From an uncultured Deferribacteres bacterium (GTDB lineage Bacteria > Zhuqueibacterota > Zhuqueibacteria > Zhuqueibacterales > Geothermadaptataceae), in the NCBI GenBank assembly GCA_964014485.1, contig CAXHAT010000010.1, forward strand, positions 5,150 through 69,149: a DNA stretch of 64,000 nt. Direction: 5' to 3'. Below the pieces are notes generated by a model. It saw nothing but the letters and a program-made list of their open reading frames with translations, was not told where the DNA came from and did not search any database. The position numbers were made by a program, and so were the translations under genes. Positions 5,166-61,863 of the stretch are shown in pieces (the stretch's first letter is position 1; every line of letters begins with the position of its first letter).

Positions 5166-5190
5166 GTAGAGAAATTTCTGGAGGTAGACA

Positions 5191-5475
5191 ATGCCGACTT
5201 ACGATTATAAATGCGAAGAATGCGACCACCTTTTCGAGGCATTCCAAAGCATGTCTGCTGAACCGCTGAAAGATTGCCCAAAATGTGAAGGTGCGGTCAA
5301 ACGCATGATCCATGGCGGCACAGGGCTCATTTTTAAGGGTTCAGGATTTTATTTGACGGACTACAAGAATAAGACCCAAAGCGGCGGCAAGAAAGCGTCC
5401 GGCGGGGACGGTTCCGAGAAAAAGCCGGAAACGAAGAAAACGGAAGACAAAGCAAAAAAAAGCAGCGGCAAATAG
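5191..5475 (+). CDS. FmdB-family zinc-ribbon protein with Lys/Gly-rich tail
   Basis: MPTYDYKCEECDHLFE....CPKCEG is the canonical CxxC...CxxC putative regulatory zinc ribbon. GGAGG lies upstream at 5181-5185. Confidence 0.8.
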   Translation: MPTYDYKCEECDHLFEAFQSMSAEPLKDCPKCEGAVKRMIHGGTGLIFKGSGFYLTDYKNKTQSGGKKASGGDGSEKKPETKKTEDKAKKSSGK

Positions 5476-5582
5476 ACAAAGTTCTCTTTCCAGGCGCTGC
5501 AGAAGATTTGATTCTAATCTCCTTTCTGTGCAGCGCTTACGCCGTTTCTGCAATGGATTTATAGCACCATCGGAGTATCAAC

Positions 5583-39993: not shown

Positions 39994-40107
39994 TTTTTGA
40001 TTGTTTTTTCGAAGGCGGGCGTTTGAGGTGAGTTTAAGAATTGCAAGGTCTGCCGCAAACTTTCGGGCAAACTTTGCAATTCTCAATTTTGAAGGTTTGC
40101 GCCAGAC

Positions 40108-40332
40108 TTACGCCCACCTGGAGCCGAAGACTTCGTTCGCGGCATTTTCAAAGTGCAAGCTCAAGCCGCCGCCGTCATTCGGATCTTCAGTCGTTTGATT
40201 GTCTCTTTCTTCAGGGTCTTGTTCTTCTTCTATTCGCGGCGCCAATAGTCCATTATTACAGGCGGACAAAAAGACTGTGGAAATTGAGAAAACGAGCAAA
40301 AGTACGAAGCTAATGAAACGGTGCTTTTTCAT
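40108..40332 (-). CDS. 74-aa acidic lipoprotein
   Basis: MKKHRFISFVLLLVFSISTVFLSAC is a lipobox signal. The remainder is acidic and disordered. It sits between the two CRTAC1 paralogs. Confidence 0.5.
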   Translation of the reverse strand: MKKHRFISFVLLLVFSISTVFLSACNNGLLAPRIEEEQDPEERDNQTTEDPNDGGGLSLHFENAANEVFGSRWA

Positions 40333-40387
40333 AACTTTTACCTCACAATAAGGTTAATCAATAAACGCAATGTAAATGAAAAAAAGG

Positions 40388-43300
40388 CTATTTGCCAGTA
40401 AAACGAACCACGACTTCTTCAGTTCCGGAAGAAATGTTTTTTTGAGTAATTTTTCCTCCAGGCCAGCGCACCTGGATTCCCTTTGCTCCGTCGCGCAAGC
40501 CAAGCACGTGCACGTCTGAATTTTGAGACCAATATCCCGAGCCGGATTGCACTTCGCGCGCCGGTCCAAGTCCATTTTCATAGACGATCCGAACGAGAGC
40601 GCCAATCCCGGAAGGATTGCCTGGCGGCCCCGCCAACTTCACGCGCAGGCCCGGCTTGGCGCCCGCGTTTTTATAAAGTTTTGTTTCGGCGCCGTTTTGA
40701 GAAACGGCGAGATCGACTCTGCCGTCTTTGTTGTAATCGCTCAATGCCGCGCCGCGTTGTTCGCCATAAATTTTGATTCCGGAATCTTGACCAGGTACTG
40801 CCGCCAAGCCGCCGCTTCCATCGCCTTTCAGCCAGAGACCGCGCCCGGCGTCGGAGCGCGAACTTTCAACGCGCTGAGCGAAAAAGTTTTGGCTTAGAAA
40901 AACATCGTCATGTCCGTCGCCGTCGTAATCTGCGACTCCAGCGTAGAAAGCTGGGGCGAACTGCGCTTCCGCGGGAAGCGGCTTTGCTTCAAATCGGTCG
41001 CCCTGATTTATGAAGACGGCGTGCGCCAGAAAACTGGCTTGCAGTTCCTGCGCTTTATCAAATTTCGGCCCGATGACGTCTTCAATTCCTGAGTGACTGT
41101 AAACGCTGTAATCGGTGAATCGCCTGCGCAAGTCAGGCATAGCCATTTGCAACCAAAATAATTCGTTTTCCGGAGCGTAGGCGCCTAATTCGGGAGTGTA
41201 AACCGTTTCAAAAAGATCGAGCGAGCTGTTGTTGTCAAAATCGTTGAAATACAGACGCAGCGGATGTTTTTTGCTGTAGCGATGCTCATACTTGCTGTTC
41301 AACCCCCAATTTGTCGCAATAATATCCAGGGCTCCGTCTTCGTCAAAATCGCCTGTCGCGACGCCCTGCCACCAGCCATGATAATCAGTCAGCCCCAATT
41401 CATGAGTAGCGTCTGCGAAAACGCCGTCATCGTTTCTGAAAATGGTGATCGGGCCCCATTCAATGGCCAGAATCAAGTCAGAATCGCCGTCGCCGTCGTA
41501 GTCGCTGAAGATCGCTGAGGAGACCATGCCGACGTGTGCAAAATTTGAATTATTGGCGCTGTCCGGGAGAAAAACGCCGTTTTCATTGCGGTAAAGTTTT
41601 GACGATGCGGCTTCAGGAAAACGCATCGGCACGCTGCGGCCGCCCGCGAAAAGGTCGAGATCGCCGTCCAAATCATAGTCCGCCATTGTCAGCGCCCCGG
41701 GGTTTGACGCCCCGAATGAAATTTTGCTAGCGGGTTTGAATTGGCCGTTCTGAAAAACAAACTGTGCAATTGAAGATTTTTCCGGCTGCATGCTTTCCAA
41801 ATTTGACTGACTAACCCAAAGGCGCGGGGTCTTTGTTTGATCGCGCCAAATGATCAATCCGTTTTGATCACCGACATTTTTTTCGCTGAATACGCCGCCC
41901 GAAAACTGTTCAAAACCACCGTTCCCGTCGTTCCGAAATCCTGCCAGGCTTCCGTCTCTGCCGCCGCCTATCAAGAGATCGTCAAAGCCGTCGTTGTCGA
42001 GATCGTGCCAAACCAGCCCAGGCCCAAGCTGGCTCAGTTTTTTGGGCAACAATACTTGCTGCTGAAAATCATCCCAAGGCTCTTCATGATGTATGTGATC
42101 GAGCGCTTCACTCACATTCTCAAAATAGGGTTTTGAAGCTTTTGGCGACTGAACTGGATCATCTGCGGCCCGCGTCGCTCCGGTTTCGTGGATTTCGTAA
42201 ATTCGATTACCTTTTGCATTCCGGATCACGCTCGTCGCACCGCTGCGCCACTTGACTTCAATGGTTAGGCCCCGATCAAGATCGGCTGCGGCAAACATAT
42301 AAATTTGGTCGGAGCTTGAGAGATATGCGCCCCCGGCGATAACCTCCTTGCTTTGCAGTACCGGGCCGCCTGAGACGCGTATTTGAGAACCGACGCCTCG
42401 GGTGTTTGGCGGCAGACCTTTCAAGCGTACGGCTATGCGAGGTTCAGAAGCTCTGTTGCGATAAACCGCCGCAGTTGTGTCGAGCCGATTGGCGACGAGA
42501 TCAAGATCGCCGTCATTGTCAAAATCGCCCAGCGCCATGCCGTGTGTGACGTCTTTTGAATCCAAGCCCCAGTCGGTTGTCACGTCTTCAAAAGTCAGGT
42601 CGCCGCGGTTGCGAAAGGCGGCGTTCGGCAGTTTCAGGTCTGGGTATTCTAAAATTTGTTTTTGCCAAGTGCTCAGGCTGGAATAGGCCCGCGTCCCTAA
42701 TTTTTTGAGCGTGTTTTCATCAAGCGCATCATGATAATGCCCTGTCCCGATCACAATGTCTTCAAAACCGTCAAGATCAACGTCCAGGAAAAAGGGCGAC
42801 CAGGACCAGTCGGAAGCGGCGACCCCGCTAAATTGTGCGATTTCGGTGTAAGTGTCGTCACCGCGATTTAAGAAAAGCGTGTTTCGTGAGTATTGCGGTC
42901 TGTCATCAATGACGCCGACGGAGTGGGGGAGAGGGACGCGATGGTAACGTTGCCGTTTTCGGAGACGATGGTCTCGGCTGAGCATGTCAAGCAGCAAAAA
43001 GTCCAAATCACCGTCGCGGTCAATGTCAGAGAAATCGACGCCCATGGTCGCCCAACTGGTATTGCGCATGGCAAGCTTCGGCATAGCGCGAAAATTTCCG
43101 GCGCCGTCGTTAATCCAGGCGTGATCCGGGCTCTCAAAATCGTTGCAAACGTAGATGTCAGGATCGCCGTCCTGATCAAAATCCTGGAAGCGCGCCGTTA
43201 GGCCCCAATCTTTGCGGTCAGTGATGCGCTCGCCGTTTTCATCCAGAAAGCGACCGTCGGTAAACGAGACGGGTGTGAATCGTCCGTTTCCGTCATTGAG

Positions 43301-44122
43301 GTAAAGCATGTCCGGTTCGGCGACTTCGTAGCGCGTCAAGACTTCATCGTTCAAATAGCCAAGCTCGTAGTGTTCTTTAAACTCTGCATCAATCTCAAAA
43401 GCCCCGGATCGCATCTGCCGCACGACGTTGTCAAAAGCGATTCGCCGGGGAATGTATTGATCTTTCACCGTTCGTTTTTTGTAATTGGCGACGTAAAGGT
43501 CGAGGTCGTTGTCGCCGTCAACATCGGCCAGAGCCATCGTGGTTGCGCCTGAGTCGCCGAAAAGTCCGGAAGCTGCCGTCGCATCACTGAATTTTCCCGT
43601 ACCGTCGTTCAAAAAGCAATAGTTTGGCCCGCCCAGTGTTGTCACCAACAAATCAAGATCGTCGTCACCATCTAAGTCCGCGAAAGTTGCGCCGGTCGAG
43701 AAATCTTCTGAGCACGTCACGCCGGATTGTTCGGCAATGTTCTCAAATTCCCAGCCGCCGAGATTTTTATAAAGCGCATTGGCGCCGTTCAAGCGGCAAA
43801 AGTAAATATCCGCTAACCCGTCGCCGTCCACATCACCGACGGCTACGCCTGAGCCGTTCAACAAATGGCGGTTTTGGGTTAATTGCTCGACGGTTAAGCC
43901 GTTTGAAAAATCAATGCCGGTTTTAGACGCAGGAAGCAAGTCAAAGCCGGTTTTCCCGGATGACGAAATCGATAGCTCAGCCCATCGGAAATTCTGTTCT
44001 TGACGCCATTCCAATTTTTTCTGTTCTGATGAGCATGAAAAAAGGAAAGCGATGCTTGGTGAGAGAAGAAGAAAAAGCGTGGTTAGCCTGGTTGTCATTT
44101 GAGCGATAAGTGATCTGGGCAT
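40388..44122 (-). CDS. CRTAC1-family FG-GAP/VCBS repeat lipoprotein with ASPIC/UnbV-type region (paralog A)
   Basis: Signal plus lipobox is LLLSPSIAFLFSC. FG-GAP repeats occur throughout, and the architecture matches 36250-39993. Confidence 0.8.
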   Translation of the reverse strand: MPRSLIAQMTTRLTTLFLLLSPSIAFLFSCSSEQKKLEWRQEQNFRWAELSISSSGKTGFDLLPASKTGIDFSNGLTVEQLTQNRHLLNGSGVAVGDVDGDGLADIYFCRLNGANALYKNLGGWEFENIAEQSGVTCSEDFSTGATFADLDGDDDLDLLVTTLGGPNYCFLNDGTGKFSDATAASGLFGDSGATTMALADVDGDNDLDLYVANYKKRTVKDQYIPRRIAFDNVVRQMRSGAFEIDAEFKEHYELGYLNDEVLTRYEVAEPDMLYLNDGNGRFTPVSFTDGRFLDENGERITDRKDWGLTARFQDFDQDGDPDIYVCNDFESPDHAWINDGAGNFRAMPKLAMRNTSWATMGVDFSDIDRDGDLDFLLLDMLSRDHRLRKRQRYHRVPLPHSVGVIDDRPQYSRNTLFLNRGDDTYTEIAQFSGVAASDWSWSPFFLDVDLDGFEDIVIGTGHYHDALDENTLKKLGTRAYSSLSTWQKQILEYPDLKLPNAAFRNRGDLTFEDVTTDWGLDSKDVTHGMALGDFDNDGDLDLVANRLDTTAAVYRNRASEPRIAVRLKGLPPNTRGVGSQIRVSGGPVLQSKEVIAGGAYLSSSDQIYMFAAADLDRGLTIEVKWRSGATSVIRNAKGNRIYEIHETGATRAADDPVQSPKASKPYFENVSEALDHIHHEEPWDDFQQQVLLPKKLSQLGPGLVWHDLDNDGFDDLLIGGGRDGSLAGFRNDGNGGFEQFSGGVFSEKNVGDQNGLIIWRDQTKTPRLWVSQSNLESMQPEKSSIAQFVFQNGQFKPASKISFGASNPGALTMADYDLDGDLDLFAGGRSVPMRFPEAASSKLYRNENGVFLPDSANNSNFAHVGMVSSAIFSDYDGDGDSDLILAIEWGPITIFRNDDGVFADATHELGLTDYHGWWQGVATGDFDEDGALDIIATNWGLNSKYEHRYSKKHPLRLYFNDFDNNSSLDLFETVYTPELGAYAPENELFWLQMAMPDLRRRFTDYSVYSHSGIEDVIGPKFDKAQELQASFLAHAVFINQGDRFEAKPLPAEAQFAPAFYAGVADYDGDGHDDVFLSQNFFAQRVESSRSDAGRGLWLKGDGSGGLAAVPGQDSGIKIYGEQRGAALSDYNKDGRVDLAVSQNGAETKLYKNAGAKPGLRVKLAGPPGNPSGIGALVRIVYENGLGPAREVQSGSGYWSQNSDVHVLGLRDGAKGIQVRWPGGKITQKNISSGTEEVVVRFTGK

Positions 44123-50221: not shown

Positions 50222-52858
50222 TTAAGCGCTCTGAAAATCCGTGCGGCTGTTTTCTATGAAAAGCTGTTCCGTCTTCGTGTGGGGAAAGGCTGGTAGGGAA
50301 AGTTTAATGGTGAAATTGAATATGCTGCCCGCGCCGCTCTCGCTCTGCACTTGAATCTCTCCCCCCATCATGCGAATGAGCTGCGAAGAAATCGTCAAGC
50401 CAATGCCTGCGCCGCCGAATTGTCGCGAGTGAGAAGCGTCCCCCTGAGTAAACAATTCAAAAATTGCATTTTGCTGGTCGCTTGGAATGCCGACGCCCGT
50501 ATCTGAAACGGAGAAATGCAAGATCGCCGTTTCGTCGTCGAGTTCGCCCGTTTTAACCGTGAAATGAATTTCTCCCTTGTGCGTGAATTTAATGGCGTTA
50601 CCGATGATGTTCATCAAAACCTGCTGCAATCTGCGATGATCGCCCATGAGCTTGTTCGGAATTTTTTGATCAAGATGAACCGTCAGGGAAAGGCGCTTTT
50701 GGTTCGCGCGGGCGCGCAAGGGCGCGATTGTCTGATCAATTTTTTTTCGAAAATCGAACTCAGACGAGACAAGCTGCATTCGTCCGGTTTCAACGCGTGA
50801 AATATCAAGGATGTCGTTTAGCAGCCCTAAAAGCAGGTAAGCGGATTCTTTGATCATGTTGGCGTACTCTTGCTGCGGCGGCGTAAGCGGATCTTCCAGA
50901 ACAAGATCGCTCATGCCGATAATAACGTGCAGCGGCGTCCTGATTTCATGACTCATGTTGGCCAGGAATCGGCTTTTTGCCTGGCTGGCGACTTCGGCGG
51001 CTTCTTTCGCTTCCCGCAGGTCGAGTAAAGCCTGTTTGCGGTCTGTAACGTCGGACAAAATACCGAACGCCCCGGTTCGCGCGCCCTGTGCATTGAAGAT
51101 TGGCGCTGCGTTCATTCTGACCCAGATTTGGTCGCCGGCCTTATCTCGCGTCTTGAAATCATAGGATTCGAAGCGGGCCGTTGATTTCAACAAAGTCAAG
51201 TGCTTGGCCGCGCGCTTGTCAAGCGTATCAAACATGTTTCTTCCGTTTTTGCCGATAACCTCCGATTCCACGAAACCAAAGATTTCACAAAATCGGCGAT
51301 TGACCAGGTAAATTGTGTCTTCATGATCCACCGCGATCACAGCTTCGTGCATGTTTTCCATCAATGTGCGGCGGCGCATCTCAGACATCTTGATCGCTTC
51401 TTGCGCTCTTTTTTGCTCGGAAACGTCTCGAATCAGAACCAGCGAAGCCGGTTTGCCTTCAAAAGTTATCGGCGCAGTCGAGATCGCCGCATCGACGGCC
51501 GTTCCGTCCAGGCGCAGGACTTTCTCTTCCATAACCCGGCCAAGTTCGCCTGAATAGCTGCGTTCGACGCGACGCCTGACCACGTCACGGAAGTCCGGGT
51601 GGACAAAATCCAGAATTGGCTTTCCGACGACGTCTCGAAATCGTTCGCCGCCAAAAAGTTTTAAGCCGGAAGCGTTCGTATAAACGATTTTTTGCTCTTG
51701 ATGAACGACAATCGTTTCCGGCGACAATTCAACCAGGCGACGATACCGTTCTTCACTTTCGCGCGTTTTTTGAATCGCCCGTTTTTGCGCCGTGATGTTT
51801 CGCGCAAACACTGAAACGCCGGATATTTGAGTTTCGTCGTTGGAAACGATTGGATTGAACGAAATTTCTGTAATTATTCGCGTATCCTGAAAATCGAAAA
51901 CTTTTTCCGTGGAGAAATGCTCGCCGGCCAACGCCCTGTTGTAAAATCCAAGCCACTCTTCGTGAAGCGCTTTCGGCGCTCTTTGAATGATATTCATTCC
52001 CGGCTTCAAAACCTTGCCGTACTCCAGAGCAAATTGCGTCTGAAAAACGGAATTGACCGTGACCAAATTATAGCCGCGATCAATTGACCAGATGGCGTCT
52101 TGCGTATTTTCGATGACGGCGGAAAGATTGGCGCGACTTTCCGCGTGCTGATGCATGTGGGAAACGACTTCTTCTAAGTCCTTCTTGCGAACCTTTGCCG
52201 CAATGATGCTCAAAATCGCAATGAGCGCGACAAGGCCAAATGGTTGTAAAACGTCTATGGCGCGCAAATTCCGGGTTAATGCAGCGATCAAAACCATCGC
52301 AGAACTGCTGAAAAACGCAAGCGCCAAAGTTGATTTGGTCGATAAAACGAGGCTGCTCAGAAGAAAAGCGACGCTTAACAATAGAAAAGGCGTTGGAGGC
52401 TGAGCCGTCAAAGCTTCAAATTGGAGAAGCGTTGAAAGCGCCGCGCAAGCAAGAGCGCCGACGGCCAGCTTTGCGCCCCAATGAAAATAGCGCGTCCGGC
52501 TTAACCAGTAAGCGGCGCCCTGAAAAATGAGCATTCCCGCGACGATGAGAAATTCAGGATCGGTCAAAGGGGAAAAGGCTTCGCCGCGGCGGATTGGGAT
52601 CAGGACGAACGCCAACATAAAGATGGGAAGGAAGAGCGCAAGCAGCAGCGTCGCCAGCAAACGGGCCCTACGCTGATCCGCCGCTTCGATTACTCGGGAC
52701 GGACGGGTTGCTTTTTGCCAAATATTTCTGATGATGAGATAGATACGCCGCAGTTTCACAACTCTGCCCTGCTTGAAGATCGCGGACTTGTTCACGTCTT
52801 GCGGGTTTTCAACCGCCGGGGGCGTGTTTTCAAGGCGAGACTTTTCTATATCTATCAA
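50222..52858 (-). CDS. membrane-bound PAS-domain sensor histidine kinase (no receiver, no cognate regulator in window)
   Basis: The N-terminus is a multi-TM region (~aa 60-230), followed by three PAS-like segments. H-box is MSHEIRTPLHVIIG, N-box NIIGNAIKFT and G-boxes DTGVGI and GGAGIGLTIS. Confidence 0.85.
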   Translation of the reverse strand: MIDIEKSRLENTPPAVENPQDVNKSAIFKQGRVVKLRRIYLIIRNIWQKATRPSRVIEAADQRRARLLATLLLALFLPIFMLAFVLIPIRRGEAFSPLTDPEFLIVAGMLIFQGAAYWLSRTRYFHWGAKLAVGALACAALSTLLQFEALTAQPPTPFLLLSVAFLLSSLVLSTKSTLALAFFSSSAMVLIAALTRNLRAIDVLQPFGLVALIAILSIIAAKVRKKDLEEVVSHMHQHAESRANLSAVIENTQDAIWSIDRGYNLVTVNSVFQTQFALEYGKVLKPGMNIIQRAPKALHEEWLGFYNRALAGEHFSTEKVFDFQDTRIITEISFNPIVSNDETQISGVSVFARNITAQKRAIQKTRESEERYRRLVELSPETIVVHQEQKIVYTNASGLKLFGGERFRDVVGKPILDFVHPDFRDVVRRRVERSYSGELGRVMEEKVLRLDGTAVDAAISTAPITFEGKPASLVLIRDVSEQKRAQEAIKMSEMRRRTLMENMHEAVIAVDHEDTIYLVNRRFCEIFGFVESEVIGKNGRNMFDTLDKRAAKHLTLLKSTARFESYDFKTRDKAGDQIWVRMNAAPIFNAQGARTGAFGILSDVTDRKQALLDLREAKEAAEVASQAKSRFLANMSHEIRTPLHVIIGMSDLVLEDPLTPPQQEYANMIKESAYLLLGLLNDILDISRVETGRMQLVSSEFDFRKKIDQTIAPLRARANQKRLSLTVHLDQKIPNKLMGDHRRLQQVLMNIIGNAIKFTHKGEIHFTVKTGELDDETAILHFSVSDTGVGIPSDQQNAIFELFTQGDASHSRQFGGAGIGLTISSQLIRMMGGEIQVQSESGAGSIFNFTIKLSLPAFPHTKTEQLFIENSRTDFQSA

Positions 52859-52952
52859 ATTACAAAAGATTCAATTTTTTGCAGAATCATATCCTTGAAA
52901 CAATTATATTCTTCCCGCTCAATTCGGTTCTCAAACTCAAACCTGATCATGG

Positions 52953-53612
52953 ATGTCTTCTGAAATAAAACCACAGTACATTGCCGTCGCGGGCAACATT
53001 GGCGTCGGCAAAACCACTTTGACGCGGCTCTTGTGCGAGCAATACGATTGGCTTGGCTTTTACGAAAACTTTGTTGAAAATCCCTACCTGGAAGATTTTT
53101 ATGAAGACATGAGAGGGTTTGCGTTTCAGTCACAGGTCTTTTTCTTGAAAGAGCGCATCAAAGATCATTTTGAAATCCATGACGCGCACAAAACTTGCGT
53201 GCAAGACCGGACGATTTACGAAGACGCCGAGATTTTCGCTCGCAATTTATACGACCGCAAAATGATGTCGAGCAGGGACTACGCCGTCTATGCCGACCTT
53301 TATCGGAGCATAAAAGGCTTTCTCCGCCCGCCCGACTTTTTTATCTATTTACAAGCGTCCGCCTGGACGCTGATTAGCCGAATTCGCAAACGCGGACGGA
53401 CTTATGAGCAAAGCATCGACAAAGAATATCTGTTGCAGCTCAACGCAACCTATGAACAGTGGGCTAAAGAAACGGCGGCGGAACAGCCCGTTCTAATCAT
53501 TAACACGGATGATCGCGATATCGTCGACGATCTGGAATGGCAAAAAGAAGTGTTGGTGAGAATTGAAAGCTTCGGTCGAGAAGTACGAAGTAAAAGAGAA
53601 GAGAATCTATGA
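52953..53612 (+). CDS. deoxynucleoside kinase
   Basis: P-loop AVAGNIGVGKTTL. YLEDFY, FQSQVFFL and QDRTIYED are typical of the dAK/dGK/dCK family. Confidence 0.8.
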   Translation: MSSEIKPQYIAVAGNIGVGKTTLTRLLCEQYDWLGFYENFVENPYLEDFYEDMRGFAFQSQVFFLKERIKDHFEIHDAHKTCVQDRTIYEDAEIFARNLYDRKMMSSRDYAVYADLYRSIKGFLRPPDFFIYLQASAWTLISRIRKRGRTYEQSIDKEYLLQLNATYEQWAKETAAEQPVLIINTDDRDIVDDLEWQKEVLVRIESFGREVRSKREENL

Positions 53613-54253
53613 AATTGACTGATTCAGGGAAAAGCCTCCGCTTCATCGCTGTTTGCTGTCTTTTGCCGTGGCTAATTCAATGCTCTTCCAGCAAACCGAA
53701 TCTCGCCAAAACTGAGAATGACGACAAGCAAGAAAGCGTTGCGGAGAAGCCGCAAAATCCGGCGGTCGTGCTGCGAACGACCAAAGGAGAAATCACCATC
53801 GAGCTTTTGCCGAAAAAAGCGCCGAAGTCTGTTGAGAATTTTTTGCAGTACGTCCGGGACGGTTTTTATGACGGCACGATTTTTCACCGCGTCATTCCGG
53901 ATTTCATGATCCAATGCGGCGCGCTCACTGCTGATCTGAAACCCAAGAAAACGCGCGAGCCCGTCCAGAACGAAGCGAAGCGCAGCATCAAGAATTCGCG
54001 TGGAACGGTTACAATGGCTCGGCGTTCGGGGCGAAACAGCGCAACCGCCTCGTTTTTCATCAATCTCAATCAGAACACTCATCTCGACTACGGCGTGGAC
54101 GAGTTTGGCTACACGGTTTTCGGCAGAGTCGTCGCAGGCATGGAAGTCGTTGATGCCATCGCCGCCGCGCCGACGACTACGCTGAAACAATTGAAAAACA
54201 TTCCGACCGATCCGCCGGTGATTTTACAGGCGGAGATCATAAATGCCAATTGA
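53609..54253 (+). CDS. cyclophilin-type peptidyl-prolyl isomerase, lipoprotein
   Basis: The lipobox is LIQCSS. The cyclophilin core is FHRVIPDFMIQCG and GTVTMAR...NSATASFFINL. The start overlaps the upstream stop by 4 nt. Confidence 0.85.
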   Translation: MKLTDSGKSLRFIAVCCLLPWLIQCSSSKPNLAKTENDDKQESVAEKPQNPAVVLRTTKGEITIELLPKKAPKSVENFLQYVRDGFYDGTIFHRVIPDFMIQCGALTADLKPKKTREPVQNEAKRSIKNSRGTVTMARRSGRNSATASFFINLNQNTHLDYGVDEFGYTVFGRVVAGMEVVDAIAAAPTTTLKQLKNIPTDPPVILQAEIINAN

Positions 54254-54261
54254 GAGTTTAA

Positions 54262-54660
54262 TTGTCGAACGGATCACGCTCAATAAACGAAGAGGGTTTT
54301 AAAATTAGCTATTATTACGCGATTGATGGAGATGATATCGGGAAAAAGTTAGAAGAATACGCCTTAAAAAACGATATCCGAGCAATTGTGAGTCTTTCGA
54401 ATAGAGTCAAAGCCGCTCTTTTGAAAATTCAGAATCATATCCACTCCAAGGGAGGTGAGACTATTTTCTGTGAAGGAGATAGTTTGTTGGCGTGTTCGGA
54501 CGAATTGATTGAGGTTTCTATGCAACAGTTGTCTTTTAATGAAAATGTATCATTTTCTGCAGGAGTTGGATCGACAAGCGCACTTGCACTTTTGGCACTG
54601 AAGAAAGCGAAAGGACTCGGAAAAAGCCGAATTGAAATTTTCATGGAGCGTCCGGAATGA
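54262..54660 (+). CDS. stand-alone minimal Cas10/GGDEF-type palm (mCpol-like) nucleotide cyclase/polymerase, 132 aa
   Basis: TTG start 8 nt after the cyclophilin stop. Palm motifs appear in the canonical order: YYYAIDGDDIG (nt 54310-54342), FCEGDSLLA (nt 54466-54492, equivalent to the GGDEF/GGDD hairpin), SFSAGVG, and ALLALKKAKGLGKSRIEIF (equivalent to A..AK..GRNR). There are no other domains. The gene is AT-rich relative to its flanks. Assignment is by motif pattern only. Confidence 0.65.
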   Translation: MSNGSRSINEEGFKISYYYAIDGDDIGKKLEEYALKNDIRAIVSLSNRVKAALLKIQNHIHSKGGETIFCEGDSLLACSDELIEVSMQQLSFNENVSFSAGVGSTSALALLALKKAKGLGKSRIEIFMERPE

Positions 54661-55310
54661 AAGCACTGGTTTTGGTTCAAAGTCCAAGAGTTGATACATA
54701 CATAAATGTTTTTGCAGCTATTTGTCACAAATATAAAAAAGTGAAGCAGATACGGCTTTTATATATTACTGAAGACAAAAACTCTGTGACAAAGAAAGAA
54801 ATTCGAGAACGTTTAGTTGAACTCTCCAAAGAGTACGCCCTGTATGAAGGTGCGGCAGATGTTTTCAAAGACACAGATGACTGCTCTTTTGAAAAACTAG
54901 GGGTTTATACTAAGCAGTGGGATATTGTTGATGTTTCAGGGCTAAGTAAAGAAACATCCATAAGCATCGCTGCAATGTCTGTTTCGAATCGTAATGTTCG
55001 AGTCTGCTCGGTTCATTGGTTAAAACAATTTAAAAAAGGGGATGCTTGGGTTTTATCAGATAGTAATCATGAATATATTAATTTGTTAAGCACCGGAGCT
55101 CTTGCCCTATTAAGGAATGATCATTTCCAGAAAAGGCATGTCATAATAGCCTTTGGCGGAATTTTTGGATCGCTTACGCTGCTTGTTCTTTTTAAAATAA
55201 TGTTTCCAACGTTTTTTATACCCAATATTGTCGTAAATGTTTTTGGGCTCCTGATTGGCGTTGCAGGCTTATATTTGGCGGCAGTTAGTTTATCAAATGG
55301 TGTGAAGTAG
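54657..55310 (+). CDS. CARF-like (Rossmannoid) sensor domain fused to two C-terminal TM helices - predicted membrane effector
   Basis: An ATGA overlap with the upstream gene. The N-terminal ~155 aa start with a beta strand (KALVLVQSP) and contain DIVDVSGLSKETS, which resembles the D-[IV]-[TS]-G-x-x-K ligand loop of CARF-type sensors. TM helices are HVIIAFGGIFGSLTLLVLFKIMF (aa 161-183) and IPNIVVNVFGLLIGVAGLYLAAVSL (aa 187-211), at nt ~55137-55289. Confidence 0.55.
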   Translation: MKALVLVQSPRVDTYINVFAAICHKYKKVKQIRLLYITEDKNSVTKKEIRERLVELSKEYALYEGAADVFKDTDDCSFEKLGVYTKQWDIVDVSGLSKETSISIAAMSVSNRNVRVCSVHWLKQFKKGDAWVLSDSNHEYINLLSTGALALLRNDHFQKRHVIIAFGGIFGSLTLLVLFKIMFPTFFIPNIVVNVFGLLIGVAGLYLAAVSLSNGVK

Positions 55311-55330
55311 CTGAAATCAACCTAAGTTAT

Positions 55331-55402
55331 TCAACGCCTCGACTGCCAAAACCAGCTTTGCGGAGAATCGACGGCGCACAGATCTTGGCTAACTTGCTGT
55401 GT
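55331..55402 (-). pseudogene. 3'-terminal remnant of a DUF900-type alpha/beta hydrolase paralog
   Basis: The minus-strand translation TQQVSQDLCAVDSPQSWFWQSRR* matches the C-terminus of the intact hydrolase at 57679-58797 (...FGLRAVDSPEGRFWKVRR*). At the nucleotide level, 55361-55381 and 57709-57729 are identical at 19 of 21 positions. An in-frame stop immediately upstream (55403-55405) leaves only ~23 codons. Confidence 0.55.
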
Positions 55403-55572
55403 TTAAAGAGGTGCGCCTAAGGTCACTTTGGAACGATTTGAAAATCATTCCAATCGATTCTCTGGTTACCTTACACATGGAAATTCTCGAATAAAAGCGT
55501 TAGTCCGCGGCAGCATGTGCTTCTGGGGTTAACAAGAGCAAATGGTTTGCAGTTTTCAAAAGGAAAACACCG

Positions 55573-57282
55573 ATGAAGAACGCCGCTTCATTCATCAGCA
55601 TTTTTGCGCTGTTAACACTAACCAGCAACGTCACGACAGCCCAATCGATCACTATCGCGGTAAAAGATACAACGTTTCATGCGATTGGCGATGATTTCTT
55701 CGGCTTGCAATACCACGCCGACACTTATGACGACAATAACGCAATTGAAAAACTGAAGGCTCTCCACGCGCGCCGAATCAGAATTTGGGCGGACGTGACC
55801 GAGTTTCATCCCTCCCCCGGCGTCTGGAATTGGACGGAGCTGGATCGAAAAACGGCTGAAGTTCTCGATGCAGGATTCAAGTTCATCCTTTGCCTTTATC
55901 AGGGGGATGCGTGGTTCGTAGGCACGCCGGAAAACCCGTGGTGGAATCATCAGGCGGCGCTGACTGAGTGGGACAAAGCCGCTTTCCATCTCACCGAAAG
56001 ATATCAAAACGACATTGACCGGATCATCATTTTTGACGAGCCAAACATGCTTCATAAGGAAAGGGAGTACTACATTCCTTTCAAGCAATGCGCTCAGCTT
56101 TTCATACGCGCCGCTCAAGAAATCAAGAAGGCAAAGCCAGGCGCACTTTGCGGCGGCCCTTCCAGTTTTGGCGGCTGGGAAAACGGGCACTGGGCGAATT
56201 ATGTTTTTGCCGAGCCGGGCGGAGACGAAGCGTTAGATTTTGTTTCTTGCAACATTTTTCTGTCGTGGAACGCCGACGATGAAGACGAAACGATTATGGA
56301 CAGAACGATTTGGTACGAAGAAAGCGCACAAAAAATTAAAGTGATGACAAGCGAGCACGGCGCTCCGTCGTTGTTGCTGGACGCTTACAATGCGAGCGCG
56401 CTTTGGAAAAAAGACGGCGAACTTTGGACTGACCCGGGAAATGTCAGCGTATTCGGCGGCGTTTACCAGGCGGCGGCTTTGCTGCACAGCGCGAAGGGCG
56501 GATTTGAAATCGCTTTGCATTGGGAAACGGTCGGCGGCTTTGGCGTTCTCAATTGGCCGCCTCAATTCAAGGAGCTGCCGCCCTACCATGCCTGGAAGTT
56601 TCTGGTTGAAACGGCGGGCATGAAAGCCGGAGCAAGAATTCTCGATTGTACGTCCACGGAATCGCCCAAACCGGAGGCCCCGCACCACAGCGGCATGAAC
56701 GTCAATCTCTATGAAATCCAGCCTTTTGCCATTGAGCGGGCGGACGGCGGCGTCAGCGTTATTCTTATCAACAAATACGCCGGTGAAAATCACGTCGTCT
56801 CCGTTACTCCGCCGCTTGAAATGAGAAAATTCGCAAAATTCAGGTTCGACGCCGAACGAATTTTGGATTACGCTGTTCCTTTGGAGACAGGAATCTTGGA
56901 CGGAGCGGTAGAAATCACGTGCCCGCCGTTGAGCATCTCGATCATCAGATTTGAGCGGCAGGATCCGGTCGGCTTAGACGTTGAAAATGCAACCGTGCCG
57001 CAAGAAATTGAACTTTCGCCAAGCCGTCCAAATCCCTTCCGAACAACCGCCGTTTTGGATTATTCGCTGACAAAACCGGGACAAGTTTTACTGACGATTC
57101 ACAATATTTTGGGCGAGCAAGTTCGCGTCGTCGTGAATGAACATCAGTCGGCGGGAAAACACCAGGCGGCATGGGACGGTCGCAACGACGCGGGAGAAGC
57201 GTTAAGCAGCGGCGTTTATTATTTTCGATTGCACGCTGCCCACGTCAAGCTTTTCAGAAAAGTTCTTTTTTTAAAAAACTGA
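55573..57282 (+). CDS. secreted clan GH-A-like glycoside hydrolase with T9SS C-terminal sorting domain
   Basis: Has a signal peptide and a TIM-barrel-like N-terminal region with IIIFDEPN (the NEP-type acid/base motif of clan GH-A). The last ~88 aa (nt ~57016-57279) fit the T9SS CTD pattern (RPNPF....LDYSL......L.I.N..G..V..........G.H...WDG....G..L..GVYYFRL). The GH family is not assignable by eye. Confidence 0.6.
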   Translation: MKNAASFISIFALLTLTSNVTTAQSITIAVKDTTFHAIGDDFFGLQYHADTYDDNNAIEKLKALHARRIRIWADVTEFHPSPGVWNWTELDRKTAEVLDAGFKFILCLYQGDAWFVGTPENPWWNHQAALTEWDKAAFHLTERYQNDIDRIIIFDEPNMLHKEREYYIPFKQCAQLFIRAAQEIKKAKPGALCGGPSSFGGWENGHWANYVFAEPGGDEALDFVSCNIFLSWNADDEDETIMDRTIWYEESAQKIKVMTSEHGAPSLLLDAYNASALWKKDGELWTDPGNVSVFGGVYQAAALLHSAKGGFEIALHWETVGGFGVLNWPPQFKELPPYHAWKFLVETAGMKAGARILDCTSTESPKPEAPHHSGMNVNLYEIQPFAIERADGGVSVILINKYAGENHVVSVTPPLEMRKFAKFRFDAERILDYAVPLETGILDGAVEITCPPLSISIIRFERQDPVGLDVENATVPQEIELSPSRPNPFRTTAVLDYSLTKPGQVLLTIHNILGEQVRVVVNEHQSAGKHQAAWDGRNDAGEALSSGVYYFRLHAAHVKLFRKVLFLKN

Positions 57283-58810: not shown

Positions 58811-61690
58811 CTATTTCATCAATAAGACGCGCTTGGCTTGGGTGAAATCGCCGGCTTGCAAACGATAAAAATATAATCCGCTGGGCGCCGTTGCGCCGGT
58901 TTCCGTCTTGCCGTTCCAAGTCACGGTATAAACGCCTGTGGCTTGGCTCGCCTGGACGAGCGTTCTAACTTCCCGGCCGAGCGTATCGAATATTTTTAGG
59001 GTGACGTCGCTGTTCTTCGGCAAAACATATTGAATTTTCGTCGAAGGATTGAACGGGTTTGGCCAGGCGTTGGAGAGCGCATAGCCCGAAGGCAAGACAG
59101 TCTCGCTCCCGTCCGCGACGCTTGTCGCCATGCTGGTGTAGCGGATGCGGTAAATTTTGCCGCTGTTTGCTGCGTCGGCGTTCAAATTGCCGTGAGAGGA
59201 AAAGTCGGCGACAAACAAATCCGCGCCGCTTGCCAGCAAGCCGTCCAAATGCCCAATGTCCGGCTGCATATTGTCGATAAAATGAAAATATTCCCACGTC
59301 TCGCCGTCGACGAAAACGAGCGGATTTTCTTCATTCTCTAGGCCCGCCAGAAAAAACTTGCCGTGAAAACCGACGAAAATACCGTTGTTCAAACCGTCGG
59401 GAAATTCCGGCGGCGCAAAAGCGATTTCATTCGGCCCTTCCGCTTCCGCGCCGGTCATCGGATCCGTCCACGGTTGAAAAGCCACAAGCGGCTGAATCCC
59501 GCCGCCGCCTACAACTTCGCCGGTGCGGTAGGCCGTGTAATTGTCTGGAAAGCCAAAATCCTCGATTTCACCGCCAATGTCGTCCTTCGCAATAAAATTG
59601 ATCTCGTCGGCGCTGGTCGGTTCGTTCGGGTCGACGAGGCCGTCAATGCCGTTGTCTTCAAAATACAAATCGCCGGTGACCGGATGAAAAGCCAGTCCGG
59701 AAGCGCTGCGCAAACCAGTCGCGATTTGTACCGGAGCTGTCGCGCCGATCTGGTCGTCTTGCTTAATAATTTGAATCATGTGGACGGCGTCGCCGTTGAG
59801 CGTGCCGTTGCCGCCAATTTCGCTGGAAATGGAAACCGTGCCCGTCGTGTTTTCAAAGTTTTTGGCTGAGCCAATGGGGAAAAACAAGTCGTAGCTGTCC
59901 GTCTCACCGGGCGTTTTTCGCACCGCGAGCGCCGAATGCGGATGCAGCCAACTGCTCGGGTAGGAGAAATCAAACTGCCCGACTTTTTCAAAGCTCGGTT
60001 CGTTTTCCGGGGAGTAGCGATAAATCACAATCGGCTTACCCTGCCCGGTGGTAAAAACGAGATCGTCGACCATGCGCAGAGCGGTCAAGCCGCCAACGGG
60101 AACGTCATCGAGCAACACGTTGCGCGTCTCGGCGACGCCGTTGTCGTCAGCATCGATCAATTGTACAAAACTCCCGGAAGGACTGCTCCAAAAAGATGTT
60201 CCATTGCTGACGGCGGTCAAAATCGAGCCGTCTGAGAGCTCAACCATACCAATCGGGAAATTCAAGTCCGCCGCGTAAGTCGTAATTTCGAATTCTTCCG
60301 GCTTCACGCGCGGATCGCCGCCGATGGGAAACGGCGCAGAAATTTCTTCTTCAAAAGTCACTTCCCACAAGCTTGAGCTGCGTCCGTTTTCAATGACGTA
60401 CATTTTATTTTCGGCCAGCACGGCGTCAACCGGGTTTTTGAAATTTCCGACGATGCGGGTGACGCGCGCTTCATAGCGATTTTCGGCCTCGATTTTGGTC
60501 AAGTCGAGATGGAGCAAGTCTTCGCTTTCATCACCGAAGGGACTGAGCAGACTGCTCGATCCCGGCGTCCAGCTCAGGACAAAACCGCCGCCTTTGAGAT
60601 CGCGCGGCAGGTTCATTTCCGTATCAAAAAGCAGTCCCAGCGGCGAGCGGTGCGCGGTGAAAGTGCTGATCGTCACGCCTTCATCGCTGGCGTCTTTGAT
60701 TTGCCCGTCTGCGGGGTCGCGGTACTTGTCCGCGTCCGGGCCGACGCTTCTCACGGGATCGGCGAAAACAACGCCTTCCGGCGGGGCGGGGTAGGTGGAG
60801 TCATCATGGAAAAAACCGAGCATCACGGCGTAAGCGCCCGGATTGACGAAAGGATCGGCGGTGAAATCGTACCCCGGAAATTGCTGTGGCGTGTCGTTTG
60901 TTCCCATTCGCCAGGGAAAACCGTAATGCTCGCCCTCGCGAATCCAGTTCAACTCTTCCGGATCGTCGCGGTCGCCGGAATTTTCCACGCCGAACAGGTC
61001 GCCGTTTGGCGCAAAGGCGAGATCGAAATGGTTGCGCACACCATCGGCGTATAAATAACCCTGCGCTTCCAGGCTGTCAGCGTCGTTTTGCAAAACGAGA
61101 TTCTCAGCGTCGATTGGGATGCGGAAAATTGCCGAGGTGAGGGGGAATTCGCGCACGCCGTCCATGTCCTGTGATTCGCCGTGATCGGTGCGCGAGCCAT
61201 TGTTCAGAAAAATGTAATGCCCGTCCGGGCTGAAGGCGATGGCGTTCCAATTGTGGTCGAAATGGCCGTTGAGCGGATATTCGACGGTTTCCATGACCTT
61301 CGTCCATTCGCGACCGTTGTCGTCTCCCACGCCTTTCATTAAAACGCCCATGTTCTTGCCGTCGTTTTTTTGGTTGCCGAGCACAAAAAACGTCCCGTCC
61401 GGCGCGATGGCGAAACCGGCGAGGGAGGTGACGCCGTGGTGCGTTGAGCGCGCAACCAACCGACGCGTCTTGGTCAACAAATTCGGGCGGTAAATCGACC
61501 CGGAATCGAGCGCATAATACAGCGTTTCCGTATTTAAATCCCGCGCGATGCGAATGCAATTATCTTGCACGGTCATAATTTTTTTGATCGTTATGTCAGG
61601 CCGAAACGAGATCGGTTCCTGTGCAAAAAGGAGGGTCGGAAAGACAAGAAGCGGTATAAAGGCGAGAAAGCGGGCGCTGAGATTTTTCAT
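58811..61690 (-). CDS. PQQ-dependent sugar dehydrogenase-like beta-propeller protein with T9SS C-terminal sorting domain
   Basis: Signal peptide from the Met at 61690 (MKNLSARFLAFIPLLVFPTLLFAQE). ADGVRNHFDLAFAPNGDLFGVENSGDRDDPEELNWI..GEHYGFPW matches the soluble glucose/sorbosone dehydrogenase signature. A second propeller-like half follows. The CTD (nt ~58814-59068) is NPFNPSTKIQYVLPKNSDVTLKIFDTLGREV...GVYTVTWNG...SGLYFYRL. Confidence 0.7.
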   Translation of the reverse strand: MKNLSARFLAFIPLLVFPTLLFAQEPISFRPDITIKKIMTVQDNCIRIARDLNTETLYYALDSGSIYRPNLLTKTRRLVARSTHHGVTSLAGFAIAPDGTFFVLGNQKNDGKNMGVLMKGVGDDNGREWTKVMETVEYPLNGHFDHNWNAIAFSPDGHYIFLNNGSRTDHGESQDMDGVREFPLTSAIFRIPIDAENLVLQNDADSLEAQGYLYADGVRNHFDLAFAPNGDLFGVENSGDRDDPEELNWIREGEHYGFPWRMGTNDTPQQFPGYDFTADPFVNPGAYAVMLGFFHDDSTYPAPPEGVVFADPVRSVGPDADKYRDPADGQIKDASDEGVTISTFTAHRSPLGLLFDTEMNLPRDLKGGGFVLSWTPGSSSLLSPFGDESEDLLHLDLTKIEAENRYEARVTRIVGNFKNPVDAVLAENKMYVIENGRSSSLWEVTFEEEISAPFPIGGDPRVKPEEFEITTYAADLNFPIGMVELSDGSILTAVSNGTSFWSSPSGSFVQLIDADDNGVAETRNVLLDDVPVGGLTALRMVDDLVFTTGQGKPIVIYRYSPENEPSFEKVGQFDFSYPSSWLHPHSALAVRKTPGETDSYDLFFPIGSAKNFENTTGTVSISSEIGGNGTLNGDAVHMIQIIKQDDQIGATAPVQIATGLRSASGLAFHPVTGDLYFEDNGIDGLVDPNEPTSADEINFIAKDDIGGEIEDFGFPDNYTAYRTGEVVGGGGIQPLVAFQPWTDPMTGAEAEGPNEIAFAPPEFPDGLNNGIFVGFHGKFFLAGLENEENPLVFVDGETWEYFHFIDNMQPDIGHLDGLLASGADLFVADFSSHGNLNADAANSGKIYRIRYTSMATSVADGSETVLPSGYALSNAWPNPFNPSTKIQYVLPKNSDVTLKIFDTLGREVRTLVQASQATGVYTVTWNGKTETGATAPSGLYFYRLQAGDFTQAKRVLLMK

Positions 61691-61863
61691 TGATTCCCTT
61701 GAATTTACGTGAGTTTTAAAATCATCATTCAGTTTGGCTTTCCAAGCCATGCTGGAAGCATCTTTTTTACCTTCAGCTTTTAGTTGGGCGGCAGTTCTGC
61801 ATTTGCGACTAAAAGAGATTTTTCAGAATGATAAATCGGGCTGAACGGGCGTCTTGAAAGCTT

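Follow-up and report, generated by a model that had tools for sequence, protein, structure and literature searches.

The gene pair at positions 54262 to 55310 (plus strand) of the window, by which we mean the whole 64-kb stretch of DNA from an uncultured bacterium that was analyzed, is probably a type II Panoptes anti-phage guard system. The first gene encodes an mCpol (minimal CRISPR polymerase, an OptS-like synthase), whose maximal open frame spans 54262 to 54660 (132 codons from TTG). The second gene (54657 to 55310) encodes a CARF-TM effector of 217 amino acids, which was assigned to the "dCARF+TM+TM" or CARF_m9 family from a PADLOC profile, its homologues, and hhalign comparisons. The stop codon of mCpol and the start codon of the effector gene overlap as ATGA at 54657 to 54660, as read directly from the sequence; abutting or overlapping junctions are also found in relatives, and the two genes are predicted to be translationally coupled through this overlap. 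Both frames and their overlap had been reported in a preliminary description of this DNA and were recovered on the plus strand at the same coordinates. The locus is a further member of a class that has already been described, with a published architecture and mechanism.

The first gene encodes a palm-domain enzyme with an intact predicted catalytic site

The mCpol open reading frame matched Pfam PF18182 (E = 9e-29, residues 18 to 126 of 132) and NCBIfam NF033576 (E = 5e-23). The Pfam scan detected no domain other than the palm, and Kyte-Doolittle analysis detected no transmembrane helix. A profile built from homologues matched the solved structures of OptS (9mnr and 9pd0) and mCpol (9nwn) with E values of ~1e-21, and the same three structures were the best Foldseek matches of the AF2 model (TM 0.83, rmsd 1.6 to 2.1 Å; model pLDDT 90, with low confidence in the first ~14 residues). 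The palm-only identity put forward in the preliminary description is therefore upheld by profile and structure searches alike. The motifs quoted there (YYYAIDGDDIG with D22/D24/D25, FCEGDSLLA with E71-G72-D73, SFSAGVG, ALLALKKAKGLGKSRIEIF, and DIVDVSGLSKETS) are present, and their residue numbers are right.

Two conserved motifs make up the predicted active site. The palm strand 1 motif YAIDGDDIG (residues 19 to 27; 54316 to 54342, plus strand) carries the predicted metal-binding residues D22 and D24 and aligns with AIDGDDVG of the solved mCpol and OptS enzymes; Y19, A20, I21, D22, D24, and G27 were invariant across 29 aligned mCpol homologues. The hairpin E71-G72-D73-S74 (54472 to 54483, plus strand) is the counterpart of GGDD/GGDEF, with D73 as the predicted catalytic Asp, and both G72 and D73 were invariant in the same 29 homologues. 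The hairpin position reads AADG in the solved type I enzyme. In the alignment to solved structures, D22 and D24 match the AIDGDD motif and D73 the xxDG motif. The hairpin has Ser in place of the second Asp of GGDD, a replacement shared by most aligned homologues; xGDS is their commonest form, and a few have GDG or GDN. A Ser after the hairpin Asp is the rule of this mCpol clade and no local oddity. We conclude that this mCpol is a sensor-less palm enzyme with an intact predicted catalytic site.

Two positions concern nucleotide selectivity. S46, which was invariant in the 29 homologues, appears by hand residue count to match S30 of 9NWN, a Ser involved in ATP selectivity. The other such residue of type I mCpol, N34, has not been retained: by hand mapping, K50 stands in its place. 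The product could differ from c-di-AMP and cA3 alike.

Two other identities for the first gene were rejected. A GGDEF diguanylate cyclase was dismissed because no Pfam GGDEF match was obtained even at E <= 1 and the hairpin reads EGDS; GGDEF structures were distant fold neighbors of the model (Foldseek E = 4e-5 or weaker, TM about 0.4 to 0.5). A remnant of Cas10 was rejected because there is no cas context (no cas genes among the 36 larger open reading frames scanned in the window) and the palm matches to Cas10 are weak and partial (Pfam PF22335 [Cas10/Cmr2], E = 5e-5; PADLOC Cas10, E = 1e-4). Cmr2 (3w2w) was among the Foldseek matches of the model.

The probable mCpol start codon and its 5′ signal

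The 132-amino-acid frame begins at a TTG immediately 3′ of an in-frame TAA. Comparison with relatives led us to prefer ATT at 54304 over TTG at 54262 as the start, which suggests a coding sequence of 54304 to 54660 (plus strand) and a protein of 118 amino acids, the length of six closer homologues. The 132-residue product of the preliminary description thus stands as an open frame and probably fails as the true protein. Likewise, the 8-nt gap after the upstream cyclophilin gene holds for the TTG start and becomes 50 nt, from the cyclophilin stop codon to mCpol, with the likely ATT start.

In this comparison, the candidate start was defined as the codon four positions before the Tyr or Phe that opens the [YF]AIDGD motif. 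At the locus, a Shine-Dalgarno (SD)-like gaagaggg (GAGG at 54292 to 54295) precedes ATT at 54304 to 54306, a probable noncanonical start (feature 54289 to 54306, plus strand). An SD-like word was found at positions -16 to -7 of the candidate start in 10/10 loci of the closest clade, which shares the EGDS hairpin (background rate, 9.6%). The candidate start codon in these 10 loci was ATT in six, ATC in three, and GTG in one. Three loci had no ATG, GTG, or TTG at all in the open frame ahead of the catalytic motif. Outgroups had ATG or GTG at the equivalent position.

As a separate observation, mCpol of the EGDS clade seems to initiate at AUU or AUC behind a conserved SD-like motif, which may be new and is of possible specialist interest. 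Gene callers had missed or truncated mCpol in five related loci that were inspected, and we attribute such errors to the apparent AUU/AUC start. Pseudogenization of mCpol was considered for two loci (L004 and L006) and rejected: their frames run uninterrupted between stop codons and lack only a canonical start codon.

The effector combines a CARF-like domain with a C-terminal membrane hairpin

The effector matched the PADLOC model PDLC01992 (CARF_m9--CARF_TM) over residues 2 to 211 of 217 (E = 7e-35). According to AF2 and Foldseek, residues 1 to about 145 (54657 to 55091, plus strand) form a Rossmann-like (CARF-like) domain, the predicted sensor, in which strands alternate with helices (pLDDT 80 to 92 over most of the domain). 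Its Foldseek matches in the PDB included the ring nucleases Sis0455 and Sso2081, Cad1, Card1, SiRe_0806, and cA3-bound Cdn1, and these CARF matches were interspersed with E1-type Rossmann folds (E = 1e-4 to 1e-3). Searches of effector profiles against PDB chain sequences gave no meaningful match. Within the domain, the DVSGLSKE loop (residues 92 to 99; 54930 to 54953, plus strand) is a predicted nucleotide-binding loop: D92 and K98 were invariant, and V93 nearly so, family-wide down to 18% identity. We take this loop to resemble the D-x-[TS]-G-x-x-[KR] loop of CARF domains.

The C-terminal part carries two membrane-spanning segments, located by Kyte-Doolittle analysis, AF2, and conservation. 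Transmembrane helix 1 (residues about 161 to 182; 55137 to 55202, plus strand) reached 2.18 in 19-residue Kyte-Doolittle windows and is continuous with a predicted cytosolic stalk helix from residue 147 (AF2 helix 147 to 182); its K180 was invariant in 20 close effector homologues. Transmembrane helix 2 (residues about 190 to 212; 55224 to 55292, plus strand) peaked at 2.27 over residues 191 to 209 (AF2 helix 190 to 215) and contains a near-invariant GLLIGVAGLYLA motif. The effector therefore joins a CARF-like predicted nucleotide sensor to a membrane hairpin of two helices at its C terminus, and the count of exactly two hydrophobic C-terminal helices given earlier was correct.

The layout known from OptE was not found at the locus, since the transmembrane helices follow an alpha/beta soluble domain; this confirms the earlier remark that the domain order differs from that of OptE. 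As a negative control, we took the only plasmid match of mCpol, a type I system carried by a Sulfitobacter plasmid. Its S-2TMbeta effector aligned with the effector family at an hhalign probability of 0.2% and matched PADLOC CBASS 2TM models instead.

The two genes recur as a pair in unrelated genomes

About 25 effector homologues were found at 58 to 71% identity. An exhaustive search of the family yielded 38 clusters, mostly of 208 to 239 amino acids, and a further search with a broad effector alignment returned no homologue beyond this known set. Of 18 loci having upstream DNA, 17 had a full-length mCpol frame immediately before the effector gene, across several phyla (including Neisseria, Nitrospirae, "Ca. 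Electrothrix," "Ca. Magnetomorum," and Pasteurella), and a scan of genome contigs with the mCpol alignment gave two loci. The effectors of the Magnetomorum, Pasteurella, Nitrospirae, and Neisseria relatives also matched CARF_m9--CARF_TM (E = 5e-47 to 3e-27). Defense-type neighbors of the relatives included TIR, Cas6/RAMP, a RAMP-TIR fusion, patatin, toxin-antitoxin pairs, and NERD/helicase genes. Homologous pairs thus recur as a cassette in unrelated genomes, and the profile, structure, and linkage tests agree on a CARF-like-2TM effector in a Panoptes-like module. The single exception (L019) has an intact effector without mCpol, behind an IS91-type element, which is awkward if the apo effector is always toxic.

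Sullivan et al. (2025; PMC12657218) found CARF+2TM partners in the operons of 40% of mCpol genes, and their Supplementary Table 3 describes MCI5207908.1 as "mCpol*->dCARF+TM+TM->"; this Electrothrix mCpol (P0028) is 68% identical to the mCpol of the locus. The same string is given there to the mCpol of Cylindrospermum stagnale (Cst), of Sphingomonas sp. (Sph), and of Pasteurella multocida (116 amino acids), and Ahniella affigens (Aaf) is listed as CARF+TM+TM. Our effector family matched the P. multocida neighbor with an hhalign probability of 99.8% (E = 8e-30). The assignment to type II was made through the architecture string. This string and the Pasteurella homology lend indirect support to a possible relationship with the characterized CARF-TM effectors, which were compared from their published descriptions.

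The cassette lies on a low-GC insert among housekeeping genes

The cassette is borne on a low-GC insert (54254 to 55572) between the cyclophilin gene and a gene with a FlgD_ig tail. The insert has a GC content of 0.37 to 0.40, compared with 0.50 for the window, and GC3 is 0.38 and 0.31 in the cassette genes versus 0.54 to 0.62 in the flanking genes. Because of this GC3 contrast, we conclude that the cassette was acquired horizontally. The insert flanks contained no notable repeats (only short, chance-level matches), no tRNA, no integrase, and no Rfam family, and no mobility genes were found at the locus.

Such a compact, translationally coupled two-gene cassette on acquired DNA would also suit an addiction module of toxin-antitoxin type, in which loss of the synthase frees the membrane toxin, the DNA segment is stabilized, and defense is secondary or absent. 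A toxin neutralized by the product of an enzyme is formally toxin-antitoxin logic, and toxin-antitoxin pairs and IS elements adjoin relatives. We nevertheless regard this explanation as very unlikely: effector relatives were absent from 2.9 million viral contigs and from 72,556 plasmids, the locus itself lacks mobility genes, and Acb1-dependent phage restriction has been shown experimentally for the same architecture (PMC13577387).

The cassette lies downstream of, and on the same strand as, a pair of genes for a deoxynucleoside kinase (dNK) and cyclophilin. No terminator-like site was predicted on the plus strand across 52700 to 55700, the cyclophilin junction included, which makes constitutive read-through from the cyclophilin gene plausible. 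No promoter-like site was detected directly upstream of mCpol, and the promoter/terminator scan was at background level. This arrangement, together with the housekeeping content of the rest of the 64-kb window, would be expected of a housekeeping second-messenger circuit cotranscribed with dNK and cyclophilin and tuning a membrane function to nucleotide status rather than responding to phage. The cassette has a much lower GC3 than its neighbors, however, which argues that the juxtaposition is recent; in addition, the family is patchy across phyla, and the neighbors of relatives are wholly different and often of defense type. A housekeeping role is accordingly hard to credit, and we return to type II Panoptes as the preferred reading.

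Proposed mechanism

Type II Panoptes was characterized experimentally by Gruschow et al. (bioRxiv March 2026, PLoS Biol September 2026; PMC13577387) in the Cst, Sph, and Aaf systems, whose CARF-TM effectors include WP_015209626.1 and WP_106889608.1. Constitutive cA3 keeps CARF-TM off, and its depletion by Acb1, Acb2, or Crn4 leads to growth arrest. Constitutive synthesis of 3′3′3′-cA3 is known for the mCpol of these three systems only; the Cst and Aaf effectors cause toxicity when the nucleotide is lacking, active mCpol relieves this toxicity, and phage restriction was shown for Aaf (BASEL phages Bas35-37 against Bas43) (PMC13577387).

For the present locus, we infer the product of mCpol and the inverse logic by extension from these characterized systems of the same architecture class. 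mCpol would slowly and constitutively synthesize a cyclic oligoadenylate, most likely 3′3′3′-cA3 by analogy with Cst, Sph, and Aaf. A weak AUU start would yield little enzyme and hence a small decoy pool, and it is on the smallness of this pool that the conserved AUU/AUC synthase start bears. The nucleotide would sit at the dimer interface of CARF-TM and keep the effector inactive. A phage protein aimed at CBASS or type III CRISPR, whether the sponge Acb2, the phosphodiesterase Acb1, or a ring nuclease (for example, Crn4), would lower the decoy pool, whereupon apo CARF-TM would rearrange or oligomerize, disturb the membrane, and abort the infection through growth arrest.

Membrane effectors of type III CRISPR that bind cyclic oligoadenylate are activated by their ligand, and the pair could conceivably signal in the same positive sense, in the style of CBASS or type III CRISPR, with mCpol silent until infection and its product activating CARF-TM. 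The locus L019, which tolerates an orphan effector without mCpol, fits such a scheme, and the sign of regulation for non-2TMbeta mCpol partners was left open by Sullivan et al. (PMC12657218). Three observations make positive signaling quite unlikely: the mCpol of the locus is a bare palm without sensor or regulatory domain, an ordered turn replaces the Cas10 regulatory loop in solved mCpol, and three CARF-TM-partnered mCpols make cA3 constitutively, with Cst and Aaf effectors toxic in its absence (PMC13577387).

Within the type II Panoptes reading, an AUU/AUC synthase start combined with an AUG toxin start could constitute a "translation-and-nucleotide" guard, and, independently, the short dCARF branch could use a signal other than cA3; we consider this extension unlikely. 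If it were true and the start codon deliberate, the output of mCpol would be tied to the initiation fidelity and capacity of the cell, and the system would have two triggers, namely, removal of the nucleotide by a phage sponge or nuclease and phage shut-off or rewiring of host translation initiation.

Comparison with known systems

The locus adds an environmental member, from an uncultured bacterium, to type II Panoptes, a guard characterized only in 2026. It indicates that the short (about 215 amino acids) dCARF-2TM branch moves as a low-GC cassette of two genes, which is self-contained and can insert amid housekeeping genes at a distance from CBASS and CRISPR systems. It brings no conceptual advance, since architecture and mechanism were already published. 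For the same reason, the preliminary description's suggestion of a possible undescribed architectural variant is not supported: the arrangement is in Sullivan et al. (2025) and in Gruschow et al. (2026), and PADLOC-DB (2023) already contains an HMM for the effector.

Like type II Panoptes, the locus is a two-gene operon with mCpol first and the effector second. The mCpol is sensor-less in both (about 118 to 127 amino acids) and has a corresponding Asp pair (D11/D63 in Cst, D22/D73 here), and in the effector a CARF-type sensor at the N terminus precedes a transmembrane segment at the C terminus (two helices according to Sullivan et al.). The locus differs in that the soluble part of the effector extends to T207 in Cst and L212 in Aaf, whereas the transmembrane region here starts from about residue 160; in the hairpin, which is D63-D64 in Cst and EGDS here; in the probable AUU start codon of its mCpol; and in being solitary, as no CBASS or type III CRISPR system that it could guard was found within the 64-kb window. 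Given the difference in effector length and the finding of only 38 family clusters, the characterized effectors may sit in a different dCARF-TM branch.

Type I Panoptes (OptS/OptE; Sullivan et al. and Doherty et al., Nature 2025) pairs mCpol with 2TM-beta. It has in common with the locus a homologous synthase (35 to 36% identity to Klebsiella OptS and 9NWN), the organization as an operon of two genes, and, presumably, an inverse guard logic based on a decoy nucleotide. In contrast, its OptE-type effector is unrelated, with the 2TM segment first and a beta-rich S-2TMbeta part after it, and type I enzymes, unlike those of type II, make cyclic dinucleotides.

Within the CARF_m9/CARF_TM family (PDLC01992), the effector is a full-length member from which no difference was detected; the family name denotes no tested function. 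The name CARF_m9 reportedly goes back to the classification of CARF proteins by Makarova et al. (2020). Finally, type III CRISPR systems with Cas10 and CARF effectors share with the locus the palm-domain cyclase chemistry and the CARF-type sensor. The synthase of the locus, unlike Cas10, is a single 118-amino-acid domain without HD domain, second palm, or Cas subunits, and its signal is presumed to be constitutive and inhibitory, whereas that of type III CRISPR is RNA-triggered and activating.

A solitary insert of two overlapping genes

The two overlapping ORFs of the preliminary description were both present on the forward strand: a maximal mCpol frame of 132 codons (54262-54660, +) and an effector ORF of 217 aa (54657-55310, +), which share an ATGA overlap. 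All of the motifs quoted there were found, with residue numbers as quoted. The cassette stands alone as a low-GC insert (GC3 of 0.38 for mCpol and 0.31 for the effector versus 0.54 to 0.62 in neighbors), with a dNK-cyclophilin pair on one side and a FlgD_ig-tailed gene on the other. These deoxynucleoside kinase and cyclophilin genes (52953-54253, +; ATGA overlap at 53609-53612) directly precede it on the same strand, and the cyclophilin carries an N-terminal hydrophobic, signal-like segment. FlgD_ig-type domains end two large window proteins (55573-57282 and 58811-61750). No CBASS or CRISPR genes were found in the 64-kb window, the surroundings being housekeeping in character, and no informative repeats, tRNAs, or Rfam families were found around the cassette.

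Elsewhere in the window, a 2535-aa ORF (7548-15155, +) had no Pfam match at E ≤ 1e-5. After it come a TPR protein of 700 aa, a HATPase_c_2-SpoIIE-TPR protein of 1220 aa, and a STAS protein, a run that resembles a partner-switching module. A tandem pair of about 1250 aa each with FG-GAP/ASPIC-UnbV repeats (36250-44122, −) adjoins a TonB-dependent receptor with a CarboxypepD_reg domain.

The first gene encodes a bare mCpol palm enzyme

The first protein matched Pfam mCpol (PF18182, E = 9e-29, residues 18-126) and NCBIfam mCpol (E = 5e-23); Cas10/Cmr2 palm profiles gave weak, partial matches only, and the Pfam scan yielded no GGDEF match. The mCpol profile retrieved the solved Panoptes OptS structures 9mnr and 9pd0 and the mCpol structure 9nwn (E ~1e-21). 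These were also the nearest PDB neighbors of the AlphaFold2 model (pLDDT of 90, with low confidence in the first ~14 residues), at a TM score of 0.83, an rmsd of 1.6 to 2.1 Å, and 35 to 36% identity, which bears out the proposed palm fold; GTP cyclohydrolase III, GGDEF domains, and Cmr2 were far weaker structural neighbors. The protein is thus a bare palm enzyme, and its active site is intact. Across a 29-homolog alignment, conservation is complete or nearly complete at Y19, A20, I21, D22, D24, G27, S46, G72, and D73, as well as over the C-terminal LALKKAKGLGK block. The hairpin reads xGDS in most of these homologs, so that Ser after D73 is the norm among them; in the three solved structures it is AADG in the profile alignment. 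By manual residue count from the alignment, the ATP-selectivity serine described for 9NWN (S30) corresponds to S46, but the second selectivity residue (N34) corresponds to K50, a position that varies among relatives. On this correspondence, the product would probably be adenylate-based and is not otherwise predictable.

The mCpol coding sequence likely begins at AUU

The first codon of the mCpol frame is a TTG right after an in-frame TAA, with no SD-core word (GGAG/GAGG/AGGA) at −16 to −7; the ATT at 54304, by contrast, is preceded by GAGG at −12 (motif and probable start, 54289-54306, +). In the closest mCpol clade, defined by an EGDS hairpin, an SD-like word occurs at −16 to −7 of the codon four before the Tyr/Phe of [YF]AIDGD in 10/10 loci (background, 9.6%). 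The putative start codon is ATT in six, ATC in three, and GTG in one; at the corresponding codon, more distant relatives have ATG or GTG. Three loci lack any ATG/GTG/TTG between the beginning of the open frame and the catalytic motif, and in one of these the SD-like motif overlaps an in-frame stop codon. Initiation at ATT gives a 118-aa product, the length of six closer homologs, and the 14 extra residues of the 132-codon form are those modeled with low confidence. Motif placement, clade codons, and product lengths together make 54304-54660, read from AUU, the likely CDS, and AUU/AUC preceded by a conserved SD-like motif appears to be the mCpol start in this clade. Other such sites lie in related loci L004 (6640-6655), L005 (~995-1010), and L006 (~770-785), with further examples in L009, L011, L017, L020, and L021; the effector start is ATG. 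Gene callers missed or truncated mCpol in five related loci. An AUU start would imply low synthase expression, which would fit the published view of a small decoy pool.

The effector joins a CARF-type sensor to two C-terminal TM helices

No Pfam family matched the effector, but the PADLOC model PDLC01992 (CARF_m9--CARF_TM) spans it entirely (E = 7e-35), and a Csa3 (CARF) profile gave a weak additional match. The two hydrophobic C-terminal helices previously noted were recovered by hydropathy at ~161-182 and 190-212, with basic residues ahead of TM1. In the AlphaFold2 model (pLDDT of 78), an alternating strand-helix, Rossmann-like domain ends near residue 142. The long helix that comes next (147-182) runs on into TM1, and a second helix spans 190-215. 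Foldseek neighbors in the PDB included the Sis0455 and Sso2081 ring nucleases, Cad1, Card1, SiRe_0806, and cA3-bound Cdn1, interspersed with E1-type Rossmann folds (E = 1e-4 to 1e-3), a result consistent with CARF but not decisive. Sequence searches of effector profiles against PDB chains gave nothing meaningful. The family is small (38 clusters, mostly 208 to 239 aa, in an exhaustive HMMER scan of 1.84 billion representatives). D92, K98, and Y140 are invariant throughout it, down to 18% identity, and Y15, Y63, and V93 nearly so. The stretch D92-V-S-G-L-S-K98 appears to resemble the CARF ligand loop, D-x-[TS]-G-x-x-[KR].

Synthase and effector form a conserved operon

The expectation that the two genes recur as a pair held: stop-to-stop frames scored with HMMs of both families, plus one locus from gene calls alone, placed an abutting or overlapping full-length mCpol frame directly upstream of the effector in 17 of the 18 loci having upstream DNA. 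Linked loci include a Neisseria MAG, a Nitrospirae MAG, Ca. Electrothrix, Ca. Magnetomorum, and Pasteurella multocida. Ca. Magnetomorum sp. HK-1 (JPDT01001346.1, 6.7 kb) carries two paralogous pairs ~4 kb apart (769-1778 and 5489-6561), separated by a 343-aa protein without a Pfam match. Both effectors (215 and 234 aa) are family members (HMM E = 1.5e-77 and 1.9e-62), the longer matching CARF_m9--CARF_TM at E = 5e-47.

Genes adjoining relatives' cassettes encode TIR, Cas6/RAMP, a RAMP-TIR fusion, patatin, toxin-antitoxin pairs, and NERD/helicase proteins. The fusion, a 475-aa Cmr4/Csm3-type RAMP with a C-terminal TIR (4530-5957 of Nitrospirae MAG JALUUO010000062.1; RAMPs E = 7e-19, TIR_2 E = 2e-23), lies immediately upstream of the pair. 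A second solitary insert among housekeeping genes occurs in an uncultured Neisseria sp. MAG (CAKMQH010000013.1, 5014-8278), flanked, by eye from ORF translations, by genes for a polA-like DNA polymerase I, whose frame looks frameshifted in this assembly, and an MscS-like channel. Housekeeping signaling, in which the window pair would act together with the kinase and cyclophilin genes, is unlikely given its GC3 contrast with them and the different, often defense-type, genes adjoining relatives' cassettes. No effector relatives were found in viral contigs or plasmids; an addiction module, with the effector as a toxin held by its synthase, is likewise improbable.

The sole exception to linkage is L019 (739-2769 of a Logan ERR3801502 contig), where mCpol's expected place is taken by an IS91-type element with IS91/Y2-transposase and tyrosine-recombinase genes. 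An intact 213-aa effector (P0024) comes immediately after this element, and no mCpol frame is present. W121, otherwise conserved among 20 close effector homologs, is broken in P0024 and its sister P0023. An orphan "toxin" without mCpol is unexpected under inverse signaling, in which the nucleotide restrains the effector. Positive signaling, in which it would activate the effector, is nevertheless unlikely, the Cst (Cylindrospermum stagnale) effector being toxic without cA3 (Gruschow et al., PMC13577387). That effector also requires its TM domain.

Comparison with published Panoptes systems

The preliminary description had suggested a possibly undescribed architecture; the mCpol plus CARF-2TM arrangement is already published, with 40% of mCpol genes in operons with a CARF-domain 2TM protein (Sullivan et al. 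2025, PMC12657218). Supplementary Table 3 of that study gives "mCpol*->dCARF+TM+TM->" for MCI5207908.1 (our homolog P0028), C. stagnale WP_015209627.1, Sphingomonas WP_230771556.1, and a 116-aa Pasteurella multocida mCpol. MCI5207908.1 and its partner MCI5207907.1 share 68% and 69% identity with the window mCpol and effector, respectively. The Pasteurella neighbor is homologous to the effector family (hhalign probability 99.8%, E = 8e-30) and also matches PDLC01992.

This class was named type II Panoptes by Gruschow et al. (bioRxiv March 2026; PLoS Biol September 2026; PMC13577387). In that work, Cst, Sph (Sphingomonas sp.), and Aaf (Ahniella affigens) mCpols synthesize 3'3'3'-cA3 slowly and constitutively. 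Of the CARF-TM proteins, that of Cst was purified, and it showed tight cA3 binding. The Cst system is triggered by Acb2 or Crn4, and the Aaf system restricts those BASEL phages that encode Acb1; the escapers carry acb1 mutations. We consider it probable that the window pair is a working type II Panoptes-like guard, with about an even chance that its signal is cA3 specifically. A true type I effector, encoded on a Sulfitobacter plasmid, differs in showing no match to the effector family and hitting CBASS 2TM models instead. Features common to type II and the window pair are a stand-alone mCpol whose active site is intact, a CARF-type sensor followed by a C-terminal 2TM segment, and a conserved operon, although the soluble part of the characterized effectors is apparently ~50 residues longer.
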